From the IMG/VR virus record IMGVR_UViG_2920343190_000001: DNA of 64,000 nucleotides; one strand, written 5' to 3'. The notes beneath the pieces were generated by a model. It worked only from the letters and a program-made list of their open reading frames with translations, did not search any database and had not been told where the DNA came from. Positions 1-63,437 of this stretch are shown one piece after another (the first letter of the stretch is position 1; each line of letters begins with the position of its first letter). Source of the DNA: a virus. The position numbers and the translations under genes are program-made.

Positions 1-407
1 GGATATAAATAAAATGTCAAAAAATTCTCTTCTTCTACTAATTCCTCTCTACTGTTTATATTTATATCGGTATATTTATACTCTATTAATAATCTAAATT
101 CAACTAACGATATTTATACAACTCATAATAGTGTACTATGGTGATTTTTATTTCCTATATTCAACTTTACATTCAACAACATATCCATAATGATTTTGAA
201 CTTAAAATCATTATATCTATAAATAAAGTCCTGTCGACCTTAGATAACGACAAAAGTGCCCGTCATCGACAGGACCCTATAATAGCCTATATTTAATACT
301 TTCATGAAAATAACAACTAAAAAATGTTGATAATCTGTTTAAAATATTATATATCGACAAAAAGGGGGCTTCTATGCTAATATAATCATAGATAAATAGA
401 AGCACCC

Positions 408-966
408 ATTTTAATCTGACCATAGTGGAATCTAAATTTGATTATCTTCATAATATCCGCAGGAGAATATTTAATTTTAATCTGACCATAGTGGAATCTA
501 AATTCAAGTAAAAATTCATAATCTAAACCTTGGGCTATGTCATTTTAATCTGACCATAGTGGAATCTAAATAGAAGTATTATGATTCTATCTCTTACATA
601 ATTTATAGATTTTAATCTGACCATAGTGGAATCTAAATACCACGATATGGGAGCATATATTCAATCGTTTAAATTTTAATCTGACCATAGTGGAATCTAA
701 ATTTGTCAGATATACGCGTTGTCTCTCCTCTGAAATATCATTTTAATCTGACCATAGTGGAATCTAAATAACAAATGATGTAACAGCCTTAGCTATTTCT
801 ACAATTTTAATCTGACCATAGTGGAATCTAAATATGCGAAATAGGTGGAAATTCACTGAGATAATTTCAATTTTAATCTGACCATAGTGGAATCTAAATT
901 TTTTAGTTAGCATAAATTCTCCTCAAAAGTTTTAACATTTTAATCTGATCATAGTGGAATCTATAA
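408..966 (+). CRISPR. CRISPR array, mirrored copy in the fold-back arm
   Basis: 9 repeats ATTTTAATCTGACCATAGTGGAATCTAAAT with the same 8 spacers as 5684-6242. Confidence 0.95.
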
Positions 967-2156
967 TTTTGGGATCCTAATATCAATTTTAAGGTCCTTG
1001 TAAAAATATTTACAATAAATATATAGCCAATGTCGAAGAGGATTTTTTTAATCCTTTTTTAGTTTCACAAAATATAATTATTACAGATTAAAATATTTAA
1101 GCAGTATCAAGCCCGGCTAAAAAAACATAGTAAAAGTAATATTTAAAAGTGGAAATAACGGGACTAAATATGAAGGATCAGAAAAGGATCAGAAAAAAAT
1201 TAATATAAATTTATTTATAAATGATATAATGAATACGATAGGAGCAGGGCAGTCAGTATATGATAAAATTTCAGATAGGTAAATTAACTTTTAAAAAATT
1301 TTTATTACATTGGATGGTTTCAATTATTCTAGTTGTAATTAGTTTTTTTTATTCTTAAAGAAAGTAACTTGAAAGAAATACTGGTAATAATAAGTATCTT
1401 TTCAATCTTCCTAGGAATGTTAGGTTCTATCCTATTAATAGCATTTGTAAAAGAGGTTATAGAAGATATTAATAATAAAGATTATAAGGTTGTAATAGCT
1501 ACAATTATATTTGCAAAATACTTTTTTAAATTATAAATGAAATTAATAGGGCCAACAAAAGAAGTTTGAATTCCTCTTTTGTTGACCCTTCCTTATTACA
1601 TTTCCTCAATAGTTGTTTTATTAATCATGAACTTTATTAGTGAAAATATAAAGAATGGTGAAGCTAATCCAAACGTTATTATAATCAATAATGTCCAACC
1701 TAATATAAACAATAAACTATCTCCAAAACTCACATCACATTTTAATCTTTTAGACATATTCAACTCTCCTTTATGTATCTAGTTACTAGATATATACTGT
1801 AATATATCAAAAGCTCCATCTGCAATAGTTTTGTTTTTAATTTATTTCTTTAAACTAAGTACTCGTCTTAATTTCCATTCATTGTTTATTTTTTCAAATA
1901 CTTTTACTTCTCTATTTTTGTTTAATTTGTCTATTAACTCCTCTACTATTATATCTTCATCCTGTAAAGAATTTACTATTTTTTCAAATATTATCGTACC
2001 TTTATTTTCTAGTAACAAAATTCTATATTGAATCTCTTCCATATTAATCAACCTCTTTTTTTTGTAAGTTTAACCATTTGTCTAATGTTGGTCTTGAAAT
2101 ATTATAAAATTTTGCTACCTTTACTTTTTTAAATTCAAAATTTATCATTGTTTCTT

Positions 2157-2597
2157 TTAAATCTTTTGGTATCTCTTTTTTAGGTTTTTATATTTACCTT
2201 TCTCTTTTGCTATAGCAATTCCTTCTCGCTGTCTCTCCAAAAGAATCTCTCTCTCAAATGTAGCTATCCCACCAATCACTGTCAACATAAGTTTGCCAGC
2301 AGGTGAAGATGTATCTATACTTTCTTTCAAACTTTTAAAAGTTGCTCCTTTAGCTGTTATAGATTCTGTTATTTCTAATAAATCTTTTGTATTCCTAGCC
2401 AATCTAGAAAATTCAGATACAATTACGACATCTCCTTTTCTTATAAAATTAAGCATTTCTTTAAGTTTTATTCTATCTGTATTTTTTCCAGATTTTTTAT
2501 CTATAAAAATTTCTTCGGCTCCATTTTCTTGAAGCGATCTAATTTGTCTTTCTTCATTTTGATCTATTGTTGAAACTCTTGCATATCCAACTTTCAC
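2157..2597 (-). CDS. Serine resolvase, mirrored copy (C-terminus frameshifted by a probable read error)
   Basis: Identical N-terminus to 4048-4602. Confidence 0.8.
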   Translation of the reverse strand: MKVGYARVSTIDQNEERQIRSLQENGAEEIFIDKKSGKNTDRIKLKEMLNFIRKGDVVIVSEFSRLARNTKDLLEITESITAKGATFKSLKESIDTSSPAGKLMLTVIGGIATFEREILLERQREGIAIAKEKGKYKNLKKRYQKI

Positions 2598-3477
2598 ATT
2601 TTCTCCTTTTTATTTTCATTTTACATTTTTTGTAATAAATAGTCAATGACTTAAGTTACAAAGAGTAAATTTATACAAATTACAAAGTTAGTTTACATAA
2701 CAACTATGTTTGTTTGATATGAGCAAAATAGGGTCTACCTTATTTTACAGTTTTCAATAAATTTAAAATTCAAAAAATAAAAAAGCGGACTAACGTCCGC
2801 TAAATTTTTTATCCCACACTTCTATAATCTGTAGTTTTTTTATAATATAAAGCTATATAACCTAATGTAAACATTATTTCATCAGTAGTATAATTATGAT
2901 TTCTGTTATTTTTAGTATATCCTATTATATTCATAGCTTTAAGATATATGTCTTCAGACATAGTAGGATGGTATGTAATATTATTTATCACTGTTAATCC
3001 AGAAGCTAACACGGATGAAATAAATGCTAGATTTTTTCTTTATCCATTAAATCTCTACAATGCTCTTCTTTTTTCCCCAATTTAGAACTGTAACTTCTTA
3101 AAAATATAATTATTTCTTCTAGTGATTTGCTCTCTAATTTTGTAACAACATTTTTATATTTATTCAATAAATTCTCCTTCGGCGTCTTGCCAAATAAATG
3201 AGAATATGGTATTATAATACTAGTTAAAAATCATAATACTATATTCCATAAAAATAAAAAGGTATAAATCGGCAAATTTATACTATCCATAATAATATAT
3301 GTAAATCGGCAAATTTAAATATATTATTAAATTTGCCGATTTACATATATTATTATGGATAGTATAAATTTGCCGATTTATACCTTTTTATTTTTATGGA
3401 ATATAGTATTATGATTTTTAACTAGTATTATAATACCATATTCTCATTTATTTGGCAAGACGCCGAAGGAGAATTTA

Positions 3478-3836
3478 TTGAATAAATATAAAAATGTTGT
3501 TACAAAATTAGAGAGCAAATCACTAGAAGAAATAATTATATTTTTAAGAAGTTACAGTTCTAAATTGGGGAAAAAAGAAGAGCATTGTAGAGATTTAATG
3601 GATAAAGAAAAAAATCTAGCATTATTTCATCCGTGTTAGCTTCTGGATTAACAGTGATAAATAATATTACATACCATCCTACTATGTCTGAAGACATATA
3701 TCTTAAAGCTATGAATATAATAGGATATACTAAAAATAACAGAAATCATAATTATACTACTGATGAAATAATGTTTACATTAGGTTATATAGCTTTATAT
3801 TATAAAAAAACTACAGATTATAGAAGTGTGGGATAA
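3478..3836 (+). CDS. Hypothetical protein (119 aa; intact at 51130-51489, single-base deletion here)
   Basis: GGAG RBS upstream of TTG; intact in second pass. Confidence 0.65.
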
Positions 3837-3843
3837 AAAATTT

Positions 3844-3866
3844 AGCGGACGTTAGTCCGCTTTTTT
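3844..3866 (+). terminator. Rho-independent terminator
   Basis: AGCGGAC-GTTA-GTCCGCT followed by a T-run. Confidence 0.7.
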
Positions 3867-3889
3867 ATTTTTTGAATTTTAAATTTATT

Positions 3890-4040
3890 GAAAACTGTAA
3901 AATAAGGTAGACCCTATTTTGCTCATATCAAACAAACATAGTTGTTATGTAAACTAACTTTGTAATTTGTATAAATTTACTCTTTGTAACTTAAGTCATT
4001 GACTATTTATTACAAAAAATGTAAAATGAAAATAAAAAGG
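3890..4040. promoter_or_regulatory. Candidate res site/promoter of the resolvase
   Basis: Non-coding AT-rich segment with imperfect dyads directly upstream of the resolvase, the usual position of res sites. Subsites not resolved. Confidence 0.35.
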
Positions 4041-4047
4041 AGAAAAT

Positions 4048-4602
4048 GTGAAAGTTGGATATGCAAGAGTTTCAACAATAGATCAAAATGAAGAAAGACA
4101 AATTAGATCGCTTCAAGAAAATGGAGCCGAAGAAATTTTTATAGATAAAAAATCTGGAAAAAATACAGATAGAATAAAACTTAAAGAAATGCTTAATTTT
4201 ATAAGAAAAGGAGATGTCGTAATTGTATCTGAATTTTCTAGATTGGCTAGGAATACAAAAGATTTATTAGAAATAACAGAATCTATAACAGCTAAAGGAG
4301 CAACTTTTAAAAGTTTGAAAGAAAGTATAGATACATCTTCACCTGCTGGCAAACTTATGTTGACAGTGATTGGTGGGATAGCTACATTTGAGAGAGAGAT
4401 TCTTTTGGAGAGACAGCGAGAAGGAATTGCTATAGCAAAAGAGAAAGGTAAATATAAAAAACCTAAAAAAGAGATACCAAAAGATTTAAAAGAAACAATG
4501 ATAAATTTTGAATTTAAAAAAGTAAAGGTAGCAAAATTTTATAATATTTCAAGACCAACATTAGACAAATGGTTAAACTTACAAAAAAAAGAGGTTGATT
4601 AA
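4048..4602 (+). CDS. Serine recombinase (resolvase/invertase family) with C-terminal HTH
   Basis: YARVST catalytic motif, DRxxL, EFSRLARN, FERE..ERQREG, C-terminal ISRPTL helix-turn-helix. Confidence 0.95.
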   Translation: MKVGYARVSTIDQNEERQIRSLQENGAEEIFIDKKSGKNTDRIKLKEMLNFIRKGDVVIVSEFSRLARNTKDLLEITESITAKGATFKSLKESIDTSSPAGKLMLTVIGGIATFEREILLERQREGIAIAKEKGKYKKPKKEIPKDLKETMINFEFKKVKVAKFYNISRPTLDKWLNLQKKEVD

Positions 4603-4804
4603 TATGGAAGAGATTCAATATAGAATTTTGTTACTAGAAAATAAAGGTACGATAATATTTGAAAAAATAGTAAATTCTTTACAGGATGAAGATATAATAG
4701 TAGAGGAGTTAATAGACAAATTAAACAAAAATAGAGAAGTAAAAGTATTTGAAAAAATAAACAATGAATGGAAATTAAGACGAGTACTTAGTTTAAAGAA
4801 ATAA
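4595..4804 (+). CDS. Hypothetical protein (69 aa), coupled to the resolvase
   Basis: Overlaps resolvase stop; GAGG RBS; present in all three passes. Confidence 0.6.
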   Translation: MINMEEIQYRILLLENKGTIIFEKIVNSLQDEDIIVEELIDKLNKNREVKVFEKINNEWKLRRVLSLKK

Positions 4805-4889
4805 ATTAAAAACAAAACTATTGCAGATGGAGCTTTTGATATATTACAGTATATATCTAGTAACTAGATACATAAAAGGAGAGTTGAAT

Positions 4890-5050
4890 ATGTCTAAAAG
4901 ATTAAAATGTGATGTGAGTTTTGGAGATAGTTTATTGTTTATATTAGGTTGGACATTATTGATTATAATAACGTTTGGATTAGCTTCACCATTCTTTATA
5001 TTTCACTAATAAAGTTCATGATTAATAAAACAACTATTGAGGAAATGTAA
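4890..5050 (+). CDS. Small membrane protein, DUF898/DUF6693-like (53 aa; intact at 52543-52704)
   Basis: AGGAG RBS; hydrophobic LLIIITFGLASPFF and terminal NKTTIE resemble that family. Confidence 0.5.
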
Positions 5051-5109
5051 TAAGGAAGGGTCAACAAAAGAGGAATTCAAACTTCTTTTGTTGGCCCTAT
5101 TAATTTCAT

Positions 5110-5388
5110 TTATAATTTAAAAAAGTATTTTGCAAATATAATTGTAGCTATTACAACCTTATAATCTTTATTATTAATATCTTCTATAACCTCTTTTACA
5201 AATGCTATTAATAGGATAGAACCTAACATTCCTAGGAAGATTGAAAAGATACTTATTATTACCAGTATTTCTTTCAAGTTACTTTCTTTACGAATATAAA
5301 AAAAACTAATTACAACTAGAATAATTGAAACCATCCAATGTAATAAAAATTTTTTAAAAGTTAATTTACCTATCTGAAATTTTATCAT
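5110..5388 (-). CDS. Membrane protein (92 aa, 2-3 TM segments)
   Basis: Hydrophobic segments; TATAAT and AGGAG upstream on the minus strand. Confidence 0.55.
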   Translation of the reverse strand: MIKFQIGKLTFKKFLLHWMVSIILVVISFFYIRKESNLKEILVIISIFSIFLGMLGSILLIAFVKEVIEDINNKDYKVVIATIIFAKYFFKL

Positions 5389-5616
5389 ATACTGACTGCC
5401 CTGCTCCTATCGTATTCATTATATCATTTATAAATAAATTTATATTAATTTTTTTCTGATCCTTTTCTGATCCTTCATATTTAGTCCCGTTATTTCCACT
5501 TTTAAATATTACTTTTACTATGTTTTTTTAGCCGGGCTTGATACTGCTTAAATATTTTAATCTGTAATAATTATATTTTGTGAAACTAAAAAAGAGGATT
5601 AAAAAATCCTCTTCGA

Positions 5617-5687
5617 CATTGGCTATATATTTATTGTAAATATTTTTTACAAGGACCTTAAAATTGATATTAGGATCCCAAAATTAT
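5617..5687 (+). repeat. Left copy of a 71-73 bp imperfect direct repeat bounding the CRISPR cassette
   Basis: CATTGGCTATATAT...AAATATTTTTTACAAGGACCTTAAAATTGATATTAGGATCCCAAAATTAT aligns with 6847-6919. Confidence 0.8.
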
Positions 5688-6242
5688 AGATTCCACTATG
5701 ATCAGATTAAAATGTTAAAACTTTTGAGGAGAATTTATGCTAACTAAAAAATTTAGATTCCACTATGGTCAGATTAAAATTGAAATTATCTCAGTGAATT
5801 TCCACCTATTTCGCATATTTAGATTCCACTATGGTCAGATTAAAATTGTAGAAATAGCTAAGGCTGTTACATCATTTGTTATTTAGATTCCACTATGGTC
5901 AGATTAAAATGATATTTCAGAGGAGAGACAACGCGTATATCTGACAAATTTAGATTCCACTATGGTCAGATTAAAATTTAAACGATTGAATATATGCTCC
6001 CATATCGTGGTATTTAGATTCCACTATGGTCAGATTAAAATCTATAAATTATGTAAGAGATAGAATCATAATACTTCTATTTAGATTCCACTATGGTCAG
6101 ATTAAAATGACATAGCCCAAGGTTTAGATTATGAATTTTTACTTGAATTTAGATTCCACTATGGTCAGATTAAAATTAAATATTCTCCTGCGGATATTAT
6201 GAAGATAATCAAATTTAGATTCCACTATGGTCAGATTAAAAT
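5684..6242 (-). CRISPR. Orphan CRISPR array, type I-B-like repeat: 9 repeats of 30 nt, 8 spacers of 34-38 nt
   Basis: Repeat ATTTAGATTCCACTATGGTCAGATTAAAAT starts at 5684 (degenerate), 5751, 5817, 5881, 5948, 6012, 6079, 6147 and 6213. Spacer lengths are 37, 36, 34, 37, 34, 37, 38 and 36. The degenerate repeat marks the trailer, so transcription is inferred to be on the minus strand. Confidence 0.97.
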
Positions 6243-6430
6243 GGGTGCTTCTATTTATCTATGATTATATTAGCATAGAAGCCCCCTTTTTGTCGATATA
6301 TAATATTTTAAACAGATTATCAACATTTTTTAGTTGTTATTTTCATGAAAGTATTAAATATAGGCTATTATAGGGTCCTGTCGATGACGGGCACTTTTGT
6401 CGTTATCTAAGGTCGACAGGACTTTATTTA
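6243..6430 (-). promoter_or_regulatory. CRISPR leader
   Basis: AT-rich. Minus strand carries GTCGACCTTAGATAACGACAAAAGTGCCCGTCATCGACA inside a GTCCTGTCGA/TCGACAGGAC inverted repeat (about 6375-6422). A GGGTGCTTCTA/TAGAAGCCCCC hairpin abuts the first repeat. Confidence 0.75.
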
Positions 6431-6665
6431 TAGATATAATGATTTTAAGTTCAAAATCATTATGGATATGTTGTTGAATGTAAAGTTGAATATAGGAAAT
6501 AAAAATCACCATAGTACACTATTATGAGTTGTATAAATATCGTTAGTTGAATTTAGATTATTAATAGAGTATAAATATACCGATATAAATATAAACAGTA
6601 GAGAGGAATTAGTAGAAGAAGAGAATTTTTTTGACATTTTATTTATATCCAAATAGGAGGAAGAT

Positions 6666-6815
6666 ATGAAATTAACATTTTTTGTAGCTTTAGCATTTAT
6701 ATTATTATTAACTGGCTGTAATAACAAAGAGACACGTAATTACAAAGTGAAAACAATAACAGCCGTTAATGATGGAAAAGAAGTTTATAGAAGTAGAGAA
6801 ATTATAGAATTTTAA
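6666..6815 (+). CDS. Small lipoprotein (49 aa), not in the ORF track
   Basis: AGGAGG RBS; MKLTFFVALAFILLLTGC signal peptide with LTGC lipobox; same ORF at 54319-54468. Confidence 0.8.
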   Translation: MKLTFFVALAFILLLTGCNNKETRNYKVKTITAVNDGKEVYRSREIIEF

Positions 6816-6846
6816 ATTAAAAAGGGGATTATTAGTCCTATTTTTT

Positions 6847-6919
6847 CATTGCCTATATATATTTGGTTGAAAATATTTTTGCAAAGACCTTAAAATCGAT
6901 TTTACGACCCCAAAATTAT
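6847..6919 (+). repeat. Right copy of the direct repeat bounding the CRISPR cassette
   Basis: Aligns with 5617-5687; contains perfect palindrome TAAAATCGATTTTA (6891-6904). Confidence 0.8.
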
Positions 6920-6992
6920 TGTTTAAAATTTATATTGCCGATTCTATATTTTTTTAGATAAAATATAGAAAAACAAACTTAGGAGTCTCGGT

Positions 6993-8107
6993 ATGAAAAA
7001 TAAGACTATTGAAATTTATAATTATGAAGATGAGACCGCAAAAACACAAATAACAATCAATTCACTTTTTAAAAATGATACAATTTTATTTGAACAAATA
7101 GATATAGAAGATATTAAGATATTTTTAAAGCATGGAATTTTTGCTATAAAAGGATATATTCGACACGGGGATGATATAAACGGTGAAAATATATTAAAAT
7201 TAAATAAATGGTGCAGAACGAATGGGGATAAAATAGAATGGTTAAAAAGAATTAATATAAAAATTGTCAGAAGCGGCTATGTCATTAGAGAATATGTATT
7301 TAATGGATTTGTAGCTGATTATATAGAGTTTTTTAATAAGGGAAAACATATGTTCTATGTAGTTATAAGACAATATAAATTACAACCTTTAGATGGCAGA
7401 GGAGAAACAGGAGCCGATAGTTTAAGTTCTTATGTTGGAAATATTGAAATTAAAGATGTATCTAACGAATTAATTATTTTACCTATGGACTGGAGTAAAA
7501 CTCTAATGAGTACCAGTAACTTAGCGGCAACAATTGGAATTAGTCAAACTATAAAACATAATCCTCTATCAGTATCGTTTATACTGATAGCACATACGAC
7601 AGGGATGATAACTGAATTTGTAGCAGATGTTTATTTTGTAGCTAAAGGCACCCCAGATAAGATGGGAAGTTTTAATATAACTAGAGATTGGTTTTATAAG
7701 CCTCTAGGGAATATTATAAAAGATTGGATTGAATATAGAAATCCATCTATAGAAATAAGCAATAATTTAGGAGAAGATATATATAACATTGGAAATCTTG
7801 CATTTTCTATTTTTGATTTAGGTGGAAAAGTTATAAACGGATATAAAGCATTAAAAAATATAAAAGGCGAAGGAATTTTATTTACGATTAAAATAAAAAT
7901 GTAAAAGTTAGTCGTTTTGGTAGAGAGTTGCAACCAACAAAATATATAGGATTAACACCATTGAAATCAACAGTGCAATTTACTAAAGATATGGGGCTTG
8001 ATATATATGCAACAAAAGAGGGATTCAAATCTGAATTAGAAAAAAGAGAAAAAATCTATCCTACAATAAATAATATAATAATGCCGAAAAATACAGATAT
8101 AAAGTAA
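6993..8107 (+). CDS. Hcp/TssD-like tube-domain fusion protein, candidate effector (371 aa; intact at 54646-55761, single-A deletion near 7900 here)
   Basis: N-terminal about 130 aa (KLNKWC...IVRSGYVIREYVFNGFVADYIEFF...FYVVIRQ) resembles the so-called membrane-associated protease 1/TssD-like family. C-terminal extension has a hydrophobic stretch. Confidence 0.6.
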
Positions 8108-8114
8108 GGGGGAT

Positions 8115-8411
8115 TTGATGAAAATTGATTTCAAAAAAATATTTATAAAATACATTATACCAGCTTTCCTTTTAGTTTTAGGATTTGTTGTATATACATA
8201 TTTAACAACTGGCTATATGGCTCCATTTTCAACACCAGATATAGGATTATTTTTTGTAGCTTTATTATTTATGTTTGCATTTTGGGCTTTACTAGATTAT
8301 TTTCAACATGTTACAGGTATATTGATGGCTGAAACATGGGTAAGTAGAATAATTTTTATTATAGTAGCTTTAGGGTTATTTTATATCTATAGAATCAACG
8401 GAAGAATATAA
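8115..8411 (+). CDS. 3-TM membrane protein (98 aa), candidate immunity protein
   Basis: Three hydrophobic helices; GGGGG RBS immediately after the upstream gene's stop. Confidence 0.6.
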   Translation: MMKIDFKKIFIKYIIPAFLLVLGFVVYTYLTTGYMAPFSTPDIGLFFVALLFMFAFWALLDYFQHVTGILMAETWVSRIIFIIVALGLFYIYRINGRI

Positions 8412-28846: not shown

Positions 28847-30696
28847 ATGTCTATTTCCCCTTTGTATATTTCAACTTCTTGTTCTTTTGATAGTATTGGA
28901 TTTAAGTTTATTGATACAATTTTCAATCTTCTATTTATTTCATCTATGTCTATTCCAACCGATAATAGAGCTCCTAGTATATAAGCCCTTATATCCAAAG
29001 ATTCGTTTCTTGGTCTTATTTTTTCCCAAACAACATTTCCATTTTTATTTATTTTTTTTATTTCTGCAGTCAAAGATTTAAAATACTCTATATCATACCC
29101 ATGTTTTGGATTAAGACTAAAATGACAATAACCTTCGCCAGGATTGTTTAACAATAATCTTGCATATACTGTACTTTTTAAATTATTTACTCCTAAAGAT
29201 ATTAAATTGACTCTTCCACAGTTAGTAATTTTACTTCCGTTAAATCCTGGTCTACTTCCACCTATTCCTTTTATTCCATAAACTGCATCTCCTTGTCTTG
29301 GAAATATGAAGTTATAAGCCTCATCTGTATAATGACCTCCGGTGTCTATTACCGTTACTTCCACACTCAAAGTTCTTCCTGTTTTACTATTTACAAATTT
29401 TTTATTTATATAATCATCTAACTTTTCCCATGTTGAAGTTTCACTCACATTCCCTACCACTCTATGTGTTCCTAGTCCCCAACTTTCCATTTTTTCACCA
29501 TAACCTACATATTCAAGTTGGAACCAAGTATCTTGAGTATCTATTGCTAATACTATAACTGCTACCTCATCTGGTAATTCATCATATTCTTCCCTTCTAT
29601 TAAACAACCCTTCATAGCCTACAGTCTGTTTTACTTCCTCATCCCACGTTTCAGCTAATACGGTATTATAAAAAGCTTTTAATTCTTGTAAATCATTTCT
29701 TTTCTTTAGGTATTCCTCTACAATATTTCTCCATGACATCCAAGGGCTTGCTAAGGACGATAACTTATATCCATACGTTTTTATATCTGAATCTTTATGT
29801 ATCCATTTTCCTTCTGATTGTTCATTAGCTTTCCATTCATCTTCTTTGTTTTCTATTTCACATATTGGACAAATCATTGTTGGTTCCCCTTTTCCATCTT
29901 CTGAGAACCTCATTCTTTCCCATGAAAAAGTTACGTATTCTCCGCATTCTGGACAAGGAATATACCATTCTCCTTGTGTTGATTCCAGATAGTGTTTTTC
30001 TATAGCTGAATGATTTTTTATGGTTGGGGTTCCTGATAAAAATAACCTTGCATCTTCTTTAAATGTGGTTAATCTTTTTTGTATTAATGTTATCGGATCT
30101 CCTTCTTTAGTACTTAGAAATCTATCAATTTCATCACACAAAGCTATACAAATAGGTTTACTTGCTAATTTATGAGCTGCTCCAGTTCCTCTAAATGATA
30201 AAAATCCTCCCGGGAAAGGTTTATATTTAATTGTAGTGCCAGATACTTCTCCCATGATTTCTTTTAAAACTGGTGTATCTCTTAACATAGGAGCTACTCT
30301 TTCTTTTGAATATTCTTCTGCAGCTGTCTCTGTTGGAAATACTATCAAAGTTGGACATTGGTACATATGTATTATCCAACCTATTATATTATTCATTGTT
30401 TCAGATTTACCAAGTTGTGAGGCTAACATCAAAACTACTCCTTTAACCTCTTCTTGTGAAAATTTTTCTAAAACTTCCTTCATGTATGGAGTTCTTTTTA
30501 TCCCAAATTTTCCAGGTTCAGCAGATCCTTCGTTAGATAAATATCTAAATTCTTCCCCCCAATTCAAAGGATTCATCCTTGATATTCCAATTAAACCTTT
30601 AAGAAAGTTCGATAAAATAATATCTTTACTTTTTGTTAAATTTTTTAAAGAGTTTTTATTGAGTGTTTGCTTCTTCTTCTTTTTTATATATTTCAA
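28843..30696 (-). CDS. Terminase large subunit, GpA family
   Basis: TPYMKE, ASQLGKSE Walker A, CDEIDRF, SGTPT, CPECG, IDTGGH. Confidence 0.95.
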   Translation of the reverse strand: MKYIKKKKKQTLNKNSLKNLTKSKDIILSNFLKGLIGISRMNPLNWGEEFRYLSNEGSAEPGKFGIKRTPYMKEVLEKFSQEEVKGVVLMLASQLGKSETMNNIIGWIIHMYQCPTLIVFPTETAAEEYSKERVAPMLRDTPVLKEIMGEVSGTTIKYKPFPGGFLSFRGTGAAHKLASKPICIALCDEIDRFLSTKEGDPITLIQKRLTTFKEDARLFLSGTPTIKNHSAIEKHYLESTQGEWYIPCPECGEYVTFSWERMRFSEDGKGEPTMICPICEIENKEDEWKANEQSEGKWIHKDSDIKTYGYKLSSLASPWMSWRNIVEEYLKKRNDLQELKAFYNTVLAETWDEEVKQTVGYEGLFNRREEYDELPDEVAVIVLAIDTQDTWFQLEYVGYGEKMESWGLGTHRVVGNVSETSTWEKLDDYINKKFVNSKTGRTLSVEVTVIDTGGHYTDEAYNFIFPRQGDAVYGIKGIGGSRPGFNGSKITNCGRVNLISLGVNNLKSTVYARLLLNNPGEGYCHFSLNPKHGYDIEYFKSLTAEIKKINKNGNVVWEKIRPRNESLDIRAYILGALLSVGIDIDEINRRLKIVSINLNPILSKEQEVEIYKGEIDI

Positions 30697-43569: not shown

Positions 43570-43697
43570 AGCGTACATCTTGTAACAATAAAACGTACAT
43601 CTTGTAACAATGAAGCGTACATCTTGTAACAATGAAGCGTACATCTTGTAACAAATACCCATACATCTTGTAACATATAGCGTACGTCTTGTAACAA
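43570..43697 (+). repeat. Plasmid origin iterons: six copies, about 22-bp period, consensus AGCGTACATCTTGTAACAA
   Basis: Copies near 43570, 43592, 43614, 43636, 43658 and 43679; AT-rich region upstream; further partial copy near 43803 in the rep promoter. Confidence 0.92.
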
Positions 43698-47900: not shown

Positions 47901-48623
47901 ATGAAAAATAAATATATTATGTCAAGAAAAGATAATATTATGTTAGCTAAAAGAAATATTGTTGATTCAATATGGAAAAGTGCAAATTTGGAAGGAATAG
48001 CAGTTACTTTTCCAGAAACAGAAATGATTTTTGATGGTTTAGTAGCAAAAGATATGATTATAAAAGATGTTAATGTAATTATTAATTTAAAGAAAGCATG
48101 GGAGTTTATAATAGATTATGCAGATTATCCGATAGACTTTGGATATATTTGTATGATTAATAAAATTGTAGGATCTGATAATGTTACTCCCTATCCAGGA
48201 TATATGAGAACATCTGAAGTGAAGATGGGTGGAACAGAGTGGATTCCAGAAATACCAAATGAAGTTAAGATTAAACAAGATTTAGAAGAAATAAAAAAAA
48301 TAGAAAATGCAACAGATCAAGCTATTACCTTAATGCTTTACCTTATGAGAAGTCAAATTTTCTATGATGGAAATAAAAGAACTGCTATGTTAGCAGCAAA
48401 TCAAGTAATGATACATAATGGAGCAGGAATTATTTCTATCCCTCTTGAAGAGCAAAAGAATTTTAGAAATGAACTGGTAAAGTTCTACGAAAGTAATGAT
48501 ATGACTGGAATAAAAGAAATGATTTATAATAAATGTATTGATGGAATTGATTTTAATATTAAGGAAAATAAAGATTTATTAGATTTTGAGAAAAAATTAA
48601 AAGATATGAAAAAAAGTCAGTAA
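47901..48623 (+). CDS. Fic/DOC family protein
   Basis: QIFYDGNKRTA (variant Fic motif). Confidence 0.88.
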   Translation: MKNKYIMSRKDNIMLAKRNIVDSIWKSANLEGIAVTFPETEMIFDGLVAKDMIIKDVNVIINLKKAWEFIIDYADYPIDFGYICMINKIVGSDNVTPYPGYMRTSEVKMGGTEWIPEIPNEVKIKQDLEEIKKIENATDQAITLMLYLMRSQIFYDGNKRTAMLAANQVMIHNGAGIISIPLEEQKNFRNELVKFYESNDMTGIKEMIYNKCIDGIDFNIKENKDLLDFEKKLKDMKKSQ

Positions 48624-50902: not shown

Positions 50903-51129
50903 AAATAGCCCTCAACTAAAAGGACGTTATAGAAATCCCAGCAAAATGCTGTTTACATAAATTGATTTAATAATATATTTAAATTTGCCGATTTACATAT
51001 ATTATTATGGATAGTATAAATTTGCCGATTTATACCTTTTTATTTTTATGGAATATAGTATTATGATTTTTAACTAGTATTATAATACCATATTCTCATT
51101 TATTTGGCAAGACGCCGAAGGAGAATTTA

Positions 51130-51489
51130 TTGAATAAATATAAAAATGTTGTTACAAAATTAGAGAGCAAATCACTAGAAGAAATAATTATATTTTTAAG
51201 AAGTTACAGTTCTAAATTGGGGAAAAAAGAAGAGCATTGTAGAGATTTAATGGATAAAGAAAAAAATCTAGCATTTATTTCATCCGTGTTAGCTTCTGGA
51301 TTAACAGTGATAAATAATATTACATACCATCCTACTATGTCTGAAGACATATATCTTAAAGCTATGAATATAATAGGATATACTAAAAATAACAGAAATC
51401 ATAATTATACTACTGATGAAATAATGTTTACATTAGGTTATATAGCTTTATATTATAAAAAAACTACAGATTATAGAAGTGTGGGATAA
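51130..51489 (+). CDS. Hypothetical protein (second pass, intact)
   Basis: 119-aa ORF with GGAG RBS. Confidence 0.7.
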   Translation: MNKYKNVVTKLESKSLEEIIIFLRSYSSKLGKKEEHCRDLMDKEKNLAFISSVLASGLTVINNITYHPTMSEDIYLKAMNIIGYTKNNRNHNYTTDEIMFTLGYIALYYKKTTDYRSVG

Positions 51490-51700
51490 AAAATTTAGCG
51501 GACGTTAGTCCGCTTTTTTATTTTTTGAATTTTAAATTTATTGAAAACTGTAAAATAAGGTAGACCCTATTTTGCTCATATCAAACAAACATAGTTGTTA
51601 TGTAAACTAACTTTGTAATTTGTATAAATTTACTCTTTGTAACTTAAGTCATTGACTATTTATTACAAAAAATGTAAAATGAAAATAAAAAGGAGAAAAT

Positions 51701-52255
51701 GTGAAAGTTGGATATGCAAGAGTTTCAACAATAGATCAAAATGAAGAAAGACAAATTAGATCGCTTCAAGAAAATGGAGCCGAAGAAATTTTTATAGATA
51801 AAAAATCTGGAAAAAATACAGATAGAATAAAACTTAAAGAAATGCTTAATTTTATAAGAAAAGGAGATGTCGTAATTGTATCTGAATTTTCTAGATTGGC
51901 TAGGAATACAAAAGATTTATTAGAAATAACAGAATCTATAACAGCTAAAGGAGCAACTTTTAAAAGTTTGAAAGAAAGTATAGATACATCTTCACCTGCT
52001 GGCAAACTTATGTTGACAGTGATTGGTGGGATAGCTACATTTGAGAGAGAGATTCTTTTGGAGAGACAGCGAGAAGGAATTGCTATAGCAAAAGAGAAAG
52101 GTAAATATAAAAAACCTAAAAAAGAGATACCAAAAGATTTAAAAGAAACAATGATAAATTTTGAATTTAAAAAAGTAAAGGTAGCAAAATTTTATAATAT
52201 TTCAAGACCAACATTAGACAAATGGTTAAACTTACAAAAAAAAGAGGTTGATTAA
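51701..52255 (+). CDS. Serine resolvase (second pass)
   Basis: Identical to 4048-4602. Confidence 0.95.
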   Translation: MKVGYARVSTIDQNEERQIRSLQENGAEEIFIDKKSGKNTDRIKLKEMLNFIRKGDVVIVSEFSRLARNTKDLLEITESITAKGATFKSLKESIDTSSPAGKLMLTVIGGIATFEREILLERQREGIAIAKEKGKYKKPKKEIPKDLKETMINFEFKKVKVAKFYNISRPTLDKWLNLQKKEVD

Positions 52256-52457
52256 TATGGAAGAGATTCAATATAGAATTTTGTTACTAGAAAATAAAGG
52301 TACGATAATATTTGAAAAAATAGTAAATTCTTTACAGGATGAAGATATAATAGTAGAGGAGTTAATAGACAAATTAAACAAAAATAGAGAAGTAAAAGTA
52401 TTTGAAAAAATAAACAATGAATGGAAATTAAGACGAGTACTTAGTTTAAAGAAATAA
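52248..52457 (+). CDS. Hypothetical protein (second pass)
   Basis: Identical to 4595-4804. Confidence 0.6.
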   Translation: MINMEEIQYRILLLENKGTIIFEKIVNSLQDEDIIVEELIDKLNKNREVKVFEKINNEWKLRRVLSLKK

Positions 52458-52542
52458 ATTAAAAACAAAACTATTGCAGATGGAGCTTTTGATATATTAC
52501 AGTATATATCTAGTAACTAGATACATAAAAGGAGAGTTGAAT

Positions 52543-52704
52543 ATGTCTAAAAGATTAAAATGTGATGTGAGTTTTGGAGATAGTTTATTGTTTATATTAG
52601 GTTGGACATTATTGATTATAATAACGTTTGGATTAGCTTCACCATTCTTTATATTTTCACTAATAAAGTTCATGATTAATAAAACAACTATTGAGGAAAT
52701 GTAA
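52543..52704 (+). CDS. DUF898/DUF6693-like small membrane protein (second pass, intact)
   Basis: MSKRLKCDVSFG...NKTTIEEM. Confidence 0.55.
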   Translation: MSKRLKCDVSFGDSLLFILGWTLLIIITFGLASPFFIFSLIKFMINKTTIEEM

Positions 52705-52763
52705 TAAGGAAGGGTCAACAAAAGAGGAATTCAAACTTCTTTTGTTGGCCCTATTAATTTCAT

Positions 52764-53042
52764 TTATAATTTAAAAAAGTATTTTGCAAATATAATTGTA
52801 GCTATTACAACCTTATAATCTTTATTATTAATATCTTCTATAACCTCTTTTACAAATGCTATTAATAGGATAGAACCTAACATTCCTAGGAAGATTGAAA
52901 AGATACTTATTATTACCAGTATTTCTTTCAAGTTACTTTCTTTAAGAATATAAAAAAAACTAATTACAACTAGAATAATTGAAACCATCCAATGTAATAA
53001 AAATTTTTTAAAAGTTAATTTACCTATCTGAAATTTTATCAT
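52764..53042 (-). CDS. Membrane protein (second pass)
   Basis: Copy of 5110-5388. Confidence 0.55.
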   Translation of the reverse strand: MIKFQIGKLTFKKFLLHWMVSIILVVISFFYILKESNLKEILVIISIFSIFLGMLGSILLIAFVKEVIEDINNKDYKVVIATIIFAKYFFKL

Positions 53043-53337
53043 ATACTGACTGCCCTGCTCCTATCGTATTCATTATATCATTTATAAATAAATTTATATT
53101 AATTTTTTTCTGATCCTTTTCTGATCCTTCATATTTAGTCCCGTTATTTCCACTTTTAAATATTACTTTTACTATGTTTTTTTAGCCGGGCTTGATACTG
53201 CTTAAATATTTTAATCTGTAATAATTATATTTTGTGAAACTAAAAAAGAGGATTAAAAAAATCCTCTTCGACATTGGCTATATATTTATTGTAAATATTT
53301 TTACAAGGACCTTAAAATTGATATTAGGATCCCAAAA

Positions 53338-53896
53338 TTATAGATTCCACTATGATCAGATTAAAATGTTAAAACTTTTGAGGAGAATTTATGCTAACTA
53401 AAAAATTTAGATTCCACTATGGTCAGATTAAAATTGAAATTATCTCAGTGAATTTCCACCTATTTCGCATATTTAGATTCCACTATGGTCAGATTAAAAT
53501 TGTAGAAATAGCTAAGGCTGTTACATCATTTGTTATTTAGATTCCACTATGGTCAGATTAAAATGATATTTCAGAGGAGAGACAACGCGTATATCTGACA
53601 AATTTAGATTCCACTATGGTCAGATTAAAATTTAAACGATTGAATATATGCTCCCATATCGTGGTATTTAGATTCCACTATGGTCAGATTAAAATCTATA
53701 AATTATGTAAGAGATAGAATCATAATACTTCTATTTAGATTCCACTATGGTCAGATTAAAATGACATAGCCCAAGGTTTAGATTATGAATTTTTACTTGA
53801 ATTTAGATTCCACTATGGTCAGATTAAAATTAAATATTCTCCTGCGGATATTATGAAGATAATCAAATTTAGATTCCACTATGGTCAGATTAAAAT
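53338..53896 (-). CRISPR. CRISPR array (second pass)
   Basis: Same 9 repeats and 8 spacers as 5684-6242. Confidence 0.97.
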
Positions 53897-54318
53897 GGGT
53901 GCTTCTATTTATCTATGATTATATTAGCATAGAAGCCCCCTTTTTGTCGATATATAATATTTTAAACAGATTATCAACATTTTTTAGTTGTTATTTTCAT
54001 GAAAGTATTAAATATAGGCTATTATAGGGTCCTGTCGATGACGGGCACTTTTGTCGTTATCTAAGGTCGACAGGACTTTATTTATAGATATAATGATTTT
54101 AAGTTCAAAATCATTATGGATATGTTGTTGAATGTAAAGTTGAATATAGGAAATAAAAATCACCATAGTACACTATTATGAGTTGTATAAATATCGTTAG
54201 TTGAATTTAGATTATTAATAGAGTATAAATATACCGATATAAATATAAACAGTAGAGAGGAATTAGTAGAAGAAGAGAATTTTTTGACATTTTATTTATA
54301 TCCAAATAGGAGGAAGAT

Positions 54319-54468
54319 ATGAAATTAACATTTTTTGTAGCTTTAGCATTTATATTATTATTAACTGGCTGTAATAACAAAGAGACACGTAATTACAAAG
54401 TGAAAACAATAACAGCCGTTAATGATGGAAAAGAAGTTTATAGAAGTAGAGAAATTATAGAATTTTAA
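54319..54468 (+). CDS. Small lipoprotein (second pass)
   Basis: LTGC lipobox. Confidence 0.8.
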   Translation: MKLTFFVALAFILLLTGCNNKETRNYKVKTITAVNDGKEVYRSREIIEF

Positions 54469-54645
54469 ATTAAAAAGGGGATTATTAGTCCTATTTTTTC
54501 ATTGCCTATATATATTTGGTTGAAAATATTTTTGCAAAGACCTTAAAATCGATTTTACGACCCCAAAATTATTGTTTAAAATTTATATTGCCGATTCTAT
54601 ATTTTTTTAGATAAAATATAGAAAAACAAACTTAGGAGTCTCGGT

Positions 54646-55761
54646 ATGAAAAATAAGACTATTGAAATTTATAATTATGAAGATGAGACCGCAAAAACAC
54701 AAATAACAATCAATTCACTTTTTAAAAATGATACAATTTTATTTGAACAAATAGATATAGAAGATATTAAGATATTTTTAAAGCATGGAATTTTTGCTAT
54801 AAAAGGATATATTCGACACGGGGATGATATAAACGGTGAAAATATATTAAAATTAAATAAATGGTGCAGAACGAATGGGGATAAAATAGAATGGTTAAAA
54901 AGAATTAATATAAAAATTGTCAGAAGCGGCTATGTCATTAGAGAATATGTATTTAATGGATTTGTAGCTGATTATATAGAGTTTTTTAATAAGGGAAAAC
55001 ATATGTTCTATGTAGTTATAAGACAATATAAATTACAACCTTTAGATGGCAGAGGAGAAACAGGAGCCGATAGTTTAAGTTCTTATGTTGGAAATATTGA
55101 AATTAAAGATGTATCTAACGAATTAATTATTTTACCTATGGACTGGAGTAAAACTCTAATGAGTACCAGTAACTTAGCGGCAACAATTGGAATTAGTCAA
55201 ACTATAAAACATAATCCTCTATCAGTATCGTTTATACTGATAGCACATACGACAGGGATGATAACTGAATTTGTAGCAGATGTTTATTTTGTAGCTAAAG
55301 GCACCCCAGATAAGATGGGAAGTTTTAATATAACTAGAGATTGGTTTTATAAGCCTCTAGGGAATATTATAAAAGATTGGATTGAATATAGAAATCCATC
55401 TATAGAAATAAGCAATAATTTAGGAGAAGATATATATAACATTGGAAATCTTGCATTTTCTATTTTTGATTTAGGTGGAAAAGTTATAAACGGATATAAA
55501 GCATTAAAAAATATAAAAGGCGAAGGAATTTTATTTACGATTAAAATAAAAAATGTAAAAGTTAGTCGTTTTGGTAGAGAGTTGCAACCAACAAAATATA
55601 TAGGATTAACACCATTGAAATCAACAGTGCAATTTACTAAAGATATGGGGCTTGATATATATGCAACAAAAGAGGGATTCAAATCTGAATTAGAAAAAAG
55701 AGAAAAAATCTATCCTACAATAAATAATATAATAATGCCGAAAAATACAGATATAAAGTAA
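54646..55761 (+). CDS. Hcp/TssD-like domain fusion, candidate effector (intact, 371 aa)
   Basis: See 6993-8107. Confidence 0.62.
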   Translation: MKNKTIEIYNYEDETAKTQITINSLFKNDTILFEQIDIEDIKIFLKHGIFAIKGYIRHGDDINGENILKLNKWCRTNGDKIEWLKRINIKIVRSGYVIREYVFNGFVADYIEFFNKGKHMFYVVIRQYKLQPLDGRGETGADSLSSYVGNIEIKDVSNELIILPMDWSKTLMSTSNLAATIGISQTIKHNPLSVSFILIAHTTGMITEFVADVYFVAKGTPDKMGSFNITRDWFYKPLGNIIKDWIEYRNPSIEISNNLGEDIYNIGNLAFSIFDLGGKVINGYKALKNIKGEGILFTIKIKNVKVSRFGRELQPTKYIGLTPLKSTVQFTKDMGLDIYATKEGFKSELEKREKIYPTINNIIMPKNTDIK

Positions 55762-55768
55762 GGGGGAT

Positions 55769-56065
55769 TTGATGAAAATTGATTTCAAAAAAATATTTAT
55801 AAAATACATTATACCAGCTTTCCTTTTAGTTTTAGGATTTGTTGTATATACATATTTAACAACTGGCTATATGGCTCCATTTTCAACACCAGATATAGGA
55901 TTATTTTTTGTAGCTTTATTATTTATGTTTGCATTTTGGGCTTTACTAGATTATTTTCAACATGTTACAGGTATATTGATGGCTGAAACATGGGTAAGTA
56001 GAATAATTTTTATTATAGTAGCTTTAGGGTTATTTTATATCTATAGAATCAACGGAAGAATATAA
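55769..56065 (+). CDS. 3-TM candidate immunity protein (second pass)
   Basis: Identical to 8115-8411. Confidence 0.6.
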   Translation: MMKIDFKKIFIKYIIPAFLLVLGFVVYTYLTTGYMAPFSTPDIGLFFVALLFMFAFWALLDYFQHVTGILMAETWVSRIIFIIVALGLFYIYRINGRI

Positions 56066-56134
56066 ATAATAATTGTAAATTTTCATAATATAAAAAGGCT
56101 CCTCAGTTTTATTTTGAGGAGCCTTTTATTTTTT

Positions 56135-56581
56135 TTAAGGTTTAAAAATATATATTCCATTTTTGTCTGTGTGTATATCATCTACATGGATATATCCTTT
56201 TTTTAGAGTCACTTCTGGATCCTCGATTCTTGTAATCATATAATACTTTTCTTGATTGTTAATAATTTTCTCGTAAACCTTTTTTATATCCATTCCAGGA
56301 ACTTCAAAGTCTACACCTCTCCCCAGTACATGGGCACTTAAATATAATTTGTTTGATTTTACTTTATCTATTACAATGCTATCTAAAGTTGTTCTAAGCC
56401 CTCTTTGTGTTATCCCATGACTTGGTCTATTAACTAATACAGGAACCCCTAAATCTTCTCTTAAGGTATCCAGGAACAACCAGATATTGTCGCTTATATA
56501 TTTCCTAGCATCGTCTCCAAGTTTTTCATATACTTGTGGAGATACTAATTCTTTAACTTTAAAATATTTACTTTTGTACAT
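56135..56581 (-). CDS. M15 endolysin (second pass)
   Basis: Identical to 8481-8927. Confidence 0.85.
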   Translation of the reverse strand: MYKSKYFKVKELVSPQVYEKLGDDARKYISDNIWLFLDTLREDLGVPVLVNRPSHGITQRGLRTTLDSIVIDKVKSNKLYLSAHVLGRGVDFEVPGMDIKKVYEKIINNQEKYYMITRIEDPEVTLKKGYIHVDDIHTDKNGIYIFKP

Positions 56582-56583
56582 AC

Positions 56584-57027
56584 CTAATCTCCTTCTACAC
56601 TTTCTTTATGTTTTACTGAAGCTAAAATATTTTTAATTGGAGTAGGGATAGGAAAACCTAGATTTTCTAAGTTTTCCAAGATTGAAATACCCTCCATTAT
56701 GATGCACGCATTTATTAACATTTCTCTCAGGGAAAATCCGAGGTCTTTTAATGCTCCTGATTTGTCAATTTGATACATTACAGTTATTGCAATATATATT
56801 GAAGGTTTCTTAAAAATAAATCCTTTATACATGGTATGAGAGAAAACATTTCCATTTTTAACTCCTTTTAAAATACCCGTTATGACATCTAACACTGTTA
56901 GAATAAACAGAGATTCTAAAGCGTTATCAAAACCTCCTATAAGCGGAATAATAAAGCCTAAACAAAGGTATTTAAAAAGGTTCACCGTGTCTATTATTAA
57001 ATTTTCTAGTATATTTTTCATCATCAT
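56584..57027 (-). CDS. Holin (second pass, intact)
   Basis: Holin_4 motifs. Confidence 0.85.
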   Translation of the reverse strand: MMMKNILENLIIDTVNLFKYLCLGFIIPLIGGFDNALESLFILTVLDVITGILKGVKNGNVFSHTMYKGFIFKKPSIYIAITVMYQIDKSGALKDLGFSLREMLINACIIMEGISILENLENLGFPIPTPIKNILASVKHKESVEGD

Positions 57028-57032
57028 CAGCT

Positions 57033-57278
57033 CTATGATAAAATATAATTAATTAATTTTTCATTTAAATCATAAATCCAGGAATCAATATTGAAGATTT
57101 GTGGAAAAACGGAGTTAAGGATACAAACAATTAAAACTATTAAAGAAATTAGAGAAATAACAGGGGCATATTCTTTATGTTTTGACTGTTTAAAATCTTG
57201 GTCTTTTTCTGCATTTTTAGTAGTCTTGTCAAAAATTGTTAAAACTCTTTCAATTATTGTTGCAATTGGAAATTTCAT
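57033..57278 (-). CDS. Small membrane protein (second pass)
   Basis: Identical to 9380-9625. Confidence 0.55.
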   Translation of the reverse strand: MKFPIATIIERVLTIFDKTTKNAEKDQDFKQSKHKEYAPVISLISLIVLIVCILNSVFPQIFNIDSWIYDLNEKLINYILS

Positions 57279-57295
57279 TATAGGCTCCTTTTTCT

Positions 57296-57940
57296 CTAAT
57301 CATAAGTTGTTACACATATTCCATGAACTCTTTGATATCTATGCTTTCCACCATCAACGTGAGCTTGATAGTCTCCAGTTGACAGGTAGATACTAATGTA
57401 CAAGTCATAAATGTTAAGACTATAATCATTTATGATATCTGAAAGATTTTTGTTGTATATTGTTCCTGCTTCAAATCCACTTGCACCATCTCCGCCATTT
57501 GTTTGATCTCTCCAGATCTCTTTGCTGAATACTCTATTCCCATTAGAAAATGCTTCTAAAACTACATATCCCTTTGCTATTCTGTCTCCATCATTTCGAT
57601 GTGATCTTCTATCAGAAACAGTTACATCTATTTTTAATTTAGATAAACTGGCAGCTCTTGAAGGGATTAAAAAGCTATCCACTCTATAGACTCTTGAGCT
57701 ATCTCTTGGATTATGTGTTTTAGCGCATATTGTGATAGTGTCAGTTTTGTTGAATTTTTCTCTTATATAAAATACTTTTCCATTCTTTTTGAATTCTAAT
57801 GTTGGTTTTCCATTTGTAAGTGCTATATTATCTGTTAAATCAAACCTATCTCCATTTATAGATAATTGATTTTTAGCACCATAATTTCTTCCTTCTATTT
57901 GTCTTATTATCCCATCTTTTTTTAATTGAAGTTTAGGCAT
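57296..57940 (-). CDS. Tail-associated protein (second pass)
   Basis: Identical to 9643-10287. Confidence 0.45.
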   Translation of the reverse strand: MPKLQLKKDGIIRQIEGRNYGAKNQLSINGDRFDLTDNIALTNGKPTLEFKKNGKVFYIREKFNKTDTITICAKTHNPRDSSRVYRVDSFLIPSRAASLSKLKIDVTVSDRRSHRNDGDRIAKGYVVLEAFSNGNRVFSKEIWRDQTNGGDGASGFEAGTIYNKNLSDIINDYSLNIYDLYISIYLSTGDYQAHVDGGKHRYQRVHGICVTTYD

Positions 57941-58347
57941 TACTCAATCACCCTGATTTCATATCCATTTAAATTTAGAACCATTTCCCCAGATTTACCG
58001 AATTTATCTTTTATTTTATCAACTTCAACTTTATCTTCTTTAGACATATGACCGTCTTTAGAAGAAGTGGCAATAGTGCCTTTATGTGTATTAAATAAGC
58101 TAGTTAAATTAGTTAAGTTATTTATACAATTTGTAACTATTTGTAAAAATATAGTTTGCTTAACTTCTGCAAATAAACCATTATTTAAAGGTATTGATGT
58201 AGATGTATTTTTTATGTTATAAAAATACCCAGTTTCTGCGACTTTTATAATATTCCCATTTTGTAAAGTTTGATTATTTTTCATTGATTCTACAGTACAT
58301 TCTCTTTTAAATCCTTTTCTGTCCAAAAACTTTTCTTTTGAGTTCAA
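57940..58347 (-). CDS. Tail-fibre-associated protein (second pass)
   Basis: Identical to 10287-10694. Confidence 0.5.
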   Translation of the reverse strand: MNSKEKFLDRKGFKRECTVESMKNNQTLQNGNIIKVAETGYFYNIKNTSTSIPLNNGLFAEVKQTIFLQIVTNCINNLTNLTSLFNTHKGTIATSSKDGHMSKEDKVEVDKIKDKFGKSGEMVLNLNGYEIRVIE

Positions 58348-58476
58348 TTGATCCTCCTTTCTTACCTTTTGAAGTCTGCTTCAATTTTGGTCATTTTTTT
58401 AATTTTGTCTTTCTCTCCAGTTATGTGTAAAAATATTTTTACACTATTCCAAATAACTTTTGTTATAGTAATAAAT

Positions 58477-60933: not shown

Positions 60934-61493
60934 ATATTAAAGTCTCCTATTATTGTTTTTTCTTTATGTGTATATATTCCAGTTGCAAAATTAAGGTTTA
61001 ATTCTACTTTTCCATTTTTTGTAAGTTGACTGATGTGTTGGCTTTTCTTTTTTGTTGTTTCAATCATTTTTAAGATATCTTCGATTGATTCATTTATGCT
61101 TGCATCTGAAATATTAATATTAAAATATCCTGGATTAAGTCCAACTTCGTGCCATTGATTTACCTTAGCTCCTTTGAAAAAAGTTCCTAACAGCGTATTT
61201 ATTGCTCCCACTGTACCTTTTTTCATGTGGGTTTGAAGTGAATCATTGCATACTTTTCTTTTTTCTTCTAATGTGTATTTAGGATTATAGTAGTCTATAT
61301 GAAGCTCTTTACTTAAAAGGTCTAATTCAAATTCTTCCATCTCGTCAATTCTATCGAAGTGGACTAATCTTTTTATTTGAGAGATTAAAAAATTTTGTAT
61401 TAGTAGTTCACAAACTTTAAAAATATCTTCGTATTTATCTTTAGCTAATTTGGGAGATAATTTTAAAATATTTTCTTCAAATATAGTTCTCAT
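60930..61493 (-). CDS. Baseplate protein I-like (second pass)
   Basis: Identical to 13277-13840. Confidence 0.85.
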   Translation of the reverse strand: MRTIFEENILKLSPKLAKDKYEDIFKVCELLIQNFLISQIKRLVHFDRIDEMEEFELDLLSKELHIDYYNPKYTLEEKRKVCNDSLQTHMKKGTVGAINTLLGTFFKGAKVNQWHEVGLNPGYFNINISDASINESIEDILKMIETTKKKSQHISQLTKNGKVELNLNFATGIYTHKEKTIIGDFNI

Positions 61494-62570: not shown

Positions 62571-62838
62571 TTTTTTCCACCTCTACTTTCAATATTGTTT
62601 TCTCTTCTTCAAGTTCTATACCAACACTTTTTAACTTTAACCCTGGAATATATTTTTTTATTTGTAAGTCTAGATCTTGCGATAATACTGATGGAATTTT
62701 ATTTATTTGCATATCTATTATTGAAGAGCTTAATCCCAAATCTCTAAATAAAGGAACAGTCCCTTTGCATGTATTTAAAATTACCCATAATTGTCTTAAG
62801 TATGTATCTTTTGGCTCTATATTACTTTTAACTACCAT
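62563..62838 (-). CDS. Baseplate wedge gpW-like (second pass)
   Basis: Identical to 14912-15187. Confidence 0.8.
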   Translation of the reverse strand: MVVKSNIEPKDTYLRQLWVILNTCKGTVPLFRDLGLSSSIIDMQINKIPSVLSQDLDLQIKKYIPGLKLKSVGIELEEEKTILKVEVEKTA

Positions 62839-63425: not shown

Positions 63426-63437
63426 TATTGTCCTCTC

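Follow-up and report, generated by a model that had tools for sequence, protein, structure and literature searches.

The CRISPR array described here is probably a portable type I-B leader-array module, which stems from a Cas-positive setting, is inert in its present cell and would need a compatible I-B system in trans to be of any use. Its carrier is a circular phage-plasmid of 47.65 kb, which is maintained extrachromosomally in a Fusobacteriaceae bacterium. Since neither this element nor its host provides any Cas protein, the array cannot work in this cell, and the model that it borrows the Cas proteins of its host is refuted for this host.

Array, leader and orientation

Within the window, by which the whole 64,000-nt stretch of analyzed DNA is meant, the array occupies positions 5684-6242 on the minus strand and is built from nine repeats of 30 nt and eight unique spacers (S1-S8). 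The repeats start at positions 5684 (ending at 5713), 5751, 5817, 5881, 5948, 6012, 6079, 6147, and 6213 (ending at 6242), which results in start-to-start distances of 64-68 nt. Eight of the nine repeats are identical and read ATTTAGATTCCACTATGGTCAGATTAAAAT on the plus strand, corresponding to ATTTTAATCTGACCATAGTGGAATCTAAAT in the crRNA sense (minus strand). As RNA, the repeat is essentially unstructured in both senses. All eight spacers differ from each other and have a length of 34-38 nt; the leader-proximal and newest spacer, S1, is found at 6177-6212 and the spacer at the trailer end, S8, at 5714-5750, both on the minus strand. The only deviating repeat is the terminal one at the trailer (5684-5713, minus strand), which carries three mismatches, and a degenerate repeat has the same placement in related arrays. 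The last 3 nt of this trailer repeat coincide with the start of the homology to a flanking direct repeat.

The leader (6243-6430, minus strand) can be aligned with nine other leaders of the I-B repeat class. Three of these have been shown to follow cas2, namely those of G092, which represents another Fusobacteriaceae genus, and of the two sister species G003 and G004. A predicted promoter is present at 6267-6296 on the minus strand, composed of the -35 box TCGACA (6291-6296), an 18-nt spacer and a TG-extended TAATAT. In most of the related leaders this -35 box is likewise TCGACA or TTGACA. Transcription from this sigma-70-type promoter would yield a pre-crRNA of ~650-680 nt, ending at an intrinsic terminator. 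The latter, a 10-bp stem followed by TTTTTT (5591-5614, minus strand; hairpin z = -4.2), lies ~70 nt beyond the last repeat on the array's own strand.

A further element of the leader is the dyad TGTCGA-N28-TCGACA at 6379-6418, which occurs once per unit in the window versus zero occurrences expected by chance. In the related leaders the dyad takes the form TGTCGA-N(20-40)-TCGACA; most of the related loci fetched have it at the equivalent position, and in G092 and the two sister species it immediately follows cas2. The TCGACA boxes recur in I-B leaders of Fusobacteriaceae, Brachyspira and several Clostridia lineages (loci L022, L023, L030, L031, L032, L036, L038, L042, L053, and L056), most of which also have a -35 box with the TCGACA sequence of the dyad. 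The copy in L031 pairs imperfectly, so that the sequence of the dyad is conserved and its pairing is not, which argues for a protein-binding site on the DNA rather than for an RNA hairpin. The dyad thus looks like a candidate protein-binding site, and the TCGACA boxes may be a signal, so far undescribed, for integration or regulation in this I-B subclass.

Judged from the sequence, the array is read on the minus strand, since five lines of evidence agree, which are the orientation of the G092 array after cas2, the degeneracy at the trailer, the leader alignment, the promoter and the terminator. An earlier note on this DNA had described nine repeats with eight distinct spacers, polarized degeneracy at the trailer, a host-style leader with an inverted-repeat motif and a terminator-like hairpin past the trailer. 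All of these features were recovered here, the motif being the dyad and the hairpin being the terminator (read from 5614 to 5591 on the minus strand). None of the RNA runs searched for the array locus holds the sequence, and one DNA run from an amphibian metagenome shares 5% of the k-mers of the array locus.

The phage-plasmid and the array cassette

The designation of the carrier as a phage-plasmid, already proposed in the earlier note, stands, as replication and partition genes are present together with virion and lysis genes in one unit. On the plasmid side these comprise 22-nt iterons (43570-43697), a Rep_3 initiator, a ParA ATPase and a serine resolvase. The phage side is represented by a lambda-family portal, a major capsid protein E, a gpA-type terminase, a holin and an endolysin. 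A Fic/DOC-domain protein (Pfam) is encoded at 47901-48623 among the plasmid-maintenance genes.

The window corresponds to positions 3479-67478 of contig C2 (69,450 bp). This contig begins with the unit's first 6.8 kb in reverse complement, continues with the 47,652-bp unit itself and ends with ~15 kb of a second head-to-tail copy. Here, the repeated parts are window positions 1-6650 and 50965-64000 (contig positions 1-13624 and 54443-69450), and the copies are 99.4-99.9% identical, with differences that are mostly indels. The head-to-tail junction indicates that the 47.65-kb element is circular or forms concatemers. For the fold-back, a long-read assembly artifact of a circular element is the simplest explanation; a hairpin telomere is disfavored because the other junction is head-to-tail. 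TRF places further arrays at about 407-963 and 53405-53897, and three arrays in the window were considered accordingly. This was rejected, since the additional two are assembly copies from the concatemeric fold-back contig, one in the fold-back (408-966, plus strand) and one in the second concatemer copy (53338-53896, minus strand). The element itself contains a single genuine array, which is, besides these assembly copies, the sole CRISPR array in the 2.59-Mb assembly of 14 contigs.

The array is located in an accessory region between the serine resolvase, which is accompanied by small ORFs, and the lysis module. Array, leader and a 49-aa lipoprotein-like ORF share a 1.3-kb cassette. The ORF (6666-6815, plus strand) has a signal peptide and a Cys, both read from the sequence, and a weak match to phrog_9078; the serine resolvase/invertase gene (4048-4602) lies 1 kb from the cassette. 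The cassette is bounded by imperfect direct repeats, each with a terminator hairpin and a promoter-like region, which show 78% identity across their best 69 bp. The right one (6815-6935, plus strand) is in its native place upstream of the 6993-8411 operon and is also found on contig C13 (C13:23031-23146). The left one (5585-5700, plus strand) duplicates the promoter region of this downstream operon and contains a TTGTAA/TAAAAT pair with a 19-nt spacer, which faces the array in antisense direction. These bounds, together with a left junction within the final 3 nt of the terminal repeat, suggest that the array module was acquired by recombination.

Elsewhere in the assembly, contigs C9 (C9:55184-58761) and C13 (C13:21470-23145 and 29040-29983) share 1-2.4-kb segments of 92-99% identity with the phage-plasmid, which cover the 6993-8411 operon, the resolvase region and part of a tail gene. 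This indicates that several related mobile elements co-reside or recombine in the population. Contig C13 also harbors three copies of an 18-mer ~60 nt apart (C13:51450-51571), adjacent to a homolog of a gene from G005:C16; these copies look like iterons and not like a CRISPR array.

Relatives of the element were detected neither in the family genomes nor in IMG/VR nor in an exact-protein index. PLSDB and INPHARED gave no nucleotide match to the element, and its terminase reaches no more than 40% identity with those of known phages and plasmids.

Alternatively, a leader-array fragment could have been captured once from a chromosomal I-B locus by recombination, possibly as the cassette between the ~70-115-bp imperfect direct repeats, and could since have persisted as a neutral relic, functionless in any host. 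This fits with the lack of cas genes in both element and host and with a cassette that is bounded by direct repeats and has its junction inside the last repeat. Furthermore, the searches revealed no relatives of the element or the repeat that would show maintenance over time. Nevertheless, eight identical repeats as well as an intact promoter, dyad and terminator would not be expected after a long neutral decay, although a recently captured fragment would look equally intact. A dead relic is therefore regarded as rather unlikely, but worth considering.

Related type I-B loci and spacer targets

The nearest repeats, with three mismatches, are found in four other Fusobacteriaceae genera. Among them, the 44-copy array of G092 has repeats that are identical at 27 of 30 positions and lies directly downstream of cas2 on the same strand. 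The corresponding operon, cas6-cas8b-cas7-cas5-cas3-cas4-cas1-cas2, is complete, and its genes are named Cas6, Cas8b1, I-B Cas7, Cas5b, Cas3, Cas4, Cas1b, and Cas2 by NCBIfam. This identity to cas-linked repeats bears out the previous description of the repeat as type I-B-like. The same repeat class is also present in Brachyspira, Clostridiaceae and Acidaminobacteraceae, and a comparison with Rfam CRISPR-DR43 gave 23.4 bits, which is below the threshold of 35 bits. For the exact 25-nt repeat core, no match was obtained in 185,579 species-representative genomes, IMG/VR and JGI metagenomes. Since the exact repeat was found next to no cas locus, the compatible set of Cas proteins is hypothetical.

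The I-B repeats of the sister species differ from the array repeat at 7-8 of 30 positions, and the Cas6 and Cas7 proteins of these species are only ~33% identical to the G092 type. Of 131 family genomes, 45 encode I-B Cas7, those of both sister species among them, so that Cas-positive hosts exist nearby. None of 519 spacers from related arrays targets the carrying genome, and none is shared with this array. A 908-aa ORF inside the G003 array was rejected as an artifact of masked N bases.

Targets of the spacers were searched in 190 Fusobacteriota genomes, for which a reversed control pattern of S1 gave no match. S1 matched at 35 of 36 positions in G015 and at 34 of 36 positions in both G005 and G004, the latter belonging to the genus of the carrying genome, and each match is single-copy in its genome. 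The protospacers lie in tnpA, which encodes a Y1 transposase (PF01797, IS200-like) and is followed by a TnpB/OrfB gene, representing an IS200/IS605 element. In all three species the 5' flank of the protospacer (crRNA sense) is CCT; as the three are homologous copies of one IS, this is effectively one PAM observation. CCT fits the YNW PAM predicted for the I-B system of F. nucleatum (bioRxiv 10.1101/2022.01.21.477265), and for the similar I-B system of C. difficile the PAM CCW has been shown experimentally (PMC4556805). The IS is located on an accessory contig in G005, which shares genes with the phage-plasmid, and is chromosomal in G004; in the carrying genome it was not found. The G004 protospacer (G004:C1:1300701-1300736; L060 6702-6737) belongs to an IS200/IS605 element among ABC-transporter genes, ~15 kb from the I-B CRISPR-cas locus of G004 itself, and differs from S1 at a seed position (position 3).

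For S2-S8 no target was found among the 190 Fusobacteriota genomes, and the own genome contains no protospacer of S1-S8. The searches likewise gave no protospacer for S8, the trailer spacer whose target the earlier note had proposed to be a gene start. Against INPHARED phages and PLSDB plasmids the spacers gave chance-level matches alone (E >= 0.1). Exact 24-26-mers of S2, S4, S5, S6, S7, and S8 are absent from IMG/VR, and the S1 protospacer is absent from JGI metagenomes. The spacer search and PAM derivation proposed earlier have thus provided a target for S1 alone, with its 5'-CCT flank. An action against competing phages or plasmids had been proposed in the earlier note; the sole identified target is the transposase gene of an IS, which is not demonstrably part of such a rival.

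The existence of natural protospacers with a 5'-CCT PAM for the newest spacer argues that a genuine I-B adaptation machinery inserted the spacers. Mechanistically, a module of this kind would have acquired its spacers through such machinery in an earlier Cas-positive setting and would be inert in the present cell, lacking Cas6, Cascade, Cas3, and Cas1-Cas2. Activity would be regained only with a compatible I-B system in trans, for example after the phage-plasmid has moved to another host. The likeliest type of Cas donor would be the systems adjoining the 27/30-identical repeats in other Fusobacteriaceae genera. By analogy with the prophage arrays of C. difficile, crRNAs with the 8-nt 5' handle ATCTAAAT would then guide Cascade-Cas3 to CCT-flanked targets such as IS200/IS605.

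A more active role, in which the phage-plasmid keeps the competent module as a portable immune memory while residing in Cas-less carriers, is considered unlikely. Here, the module would be switched on by the I-B system of a host reached by transfer or of a co-resident element, and S1 could attack chromosomes or rivals that bear the IS.

Cas proteins and comparison with known cas-less arrays

No cas gene had been recognized in the unit in the earlier note, and this is confirmed and holds for the rest of the genome as well. HMM searches of the host genome revealed no Cas1, Cas6, DevR/Cas7, Cas3-HD, I-B Cas7, Cas2, Csm1/Cas10, or Cas9. When all eight proteins of the G092 I-B operon were used as tblastn queries against the host genome, the best E-value was 0.19, and no match to a cas2 remnant was obtained upstream of the leader. 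Copies of the repeat, with up to three mismatches allowed, are all located on the phage-plasmid contig, and a k-mer CRISPR scan of the whole genome detected no other array. The proposal that the prophage uses Cas6/Cascade and possibly Cas1-Cas2 of its host fails here, as this host is without any cas gene and thus without a Cas system with a matching repeat.

Against this, the host could have a matching I-B system after all (Cas6, Cascade, Cas3, and perhaps Cas1-Cas2), which is either absent from the assembly or present in a co-resident strain. CRISPR-cas islands sometimes drop out of bins. The assembly may be a metagenome bin lacking a cas island, and such an origin would mean that the host assignment and the absence of cas genes are not absolute. 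It is redundant with duplicated contigs, shows 5.5% contamination and does not represent a clean closed genome; also, I-B systems are carried by both sister species and by 45 of 131 family genomes. However, the assembly is 100% complete by markers and equals the sister species in total size, no cas gene was revealed by eight HMM families or eight tblastn queries, a second array is missing and the exact repeat occurs in no species-representative genome. A missed system is therefore quite improbable.

Repeat-bearing RNAs that sequester Cas proteins are a known concept (RNA anti-CRISPRs), and those described are generally solitary repeats or mini-arrays without real spacers. That the array RNA serves as such a decoy, which would bind Cas6 or subunits of Cascade in a Cas-positive host and thereby protect the entering phage-plasmid, would fit with the strong predicted promoter, the host-type repeat class and the lack of cas genes. 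It is highly improbable, however, since all eight spacers are unique and canonical in length, a true PAM-flanked protospacer exists for one or more of them, and the present Cas-less host offers nothing to inhibit.

Orphan arrays without cas genes occur on plasmids and viruses and presumably rely on Cas proteins supplied in trans. Phage-borne cas-less arrays are already known, and the array described here is a further example. The closest known case are the cas-less I-B arrays on C. difficile prophages (phiCD630-1/-2, the skin element and phi027; Hargreaves et al., 2014, PMC4173771; Boudry et al., 2015, PMC4556805), which are expressed, processed and used by the Cas proteins of the host (PMC4173771, PMC4556805). 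In both cases the carrier is a temperate phage and cas genes are lacking. The repeats, 29-30 nt in length, are unstructured, the one farthest from the leader is a variant, and the conserved leader includes a sigma-A/sigma-70 promoter of its own, which is a predicted one here. A 5'-CC(A/T) PAM is likewise shared, as far as the CCT flank of the S1 protospacers shows. The C. difficile repeat also ends in GTAAAT. In C. difficile, however, the host chromosome contains complete I-B cas operons as well as the same repeat, whereas the present host has neither. Unlike the C. difficile arrays, the one studied here resides on an extrachromosomal Fusobacteriaceae phage-plasmid and has an IS transposase gene as its sole identified target. 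Virus-borne mini-arrays comprise one or two spacers, in contrast to the full-length leader and eight spacers found here.

Arrays without cas genes on temperate phages are an established route by which mobile elements take part in CRISPR immunity against rivals, and the present case extends this pattern to a phage-plasmid of the Fusobacteriaceae. It is distinguished by this carrier, by the Cas-less cell, by a newest spacer directed against an IS and by a leader dyad conserved across phyla. The array is not to be taken as evidence that Cas proteins of a host are borrowed, and it is otherwise ordinary. With its promoter, leader motif and perfect repeats intact in a cell without any Cas proteins, it offers a simple test case for the question of whether mobile arrays can work as plug-in modules in different hosts whose I-B systems have diverged.

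The chromosomal I-B loci of Fusobacteriaceae (G092; bioRxiv 10.1101/2022.01.21.477265) share with this array the repeat (27/30), the layout of dyad and promoter and the spacer lengths. While these chromosomal arrays directly follow cas2, the array on the phage-plasmid is detached and located on a mobile element. The dyad, being conserved across phyla, provides a concrete candidate for a leader signal of this I-B subclass.
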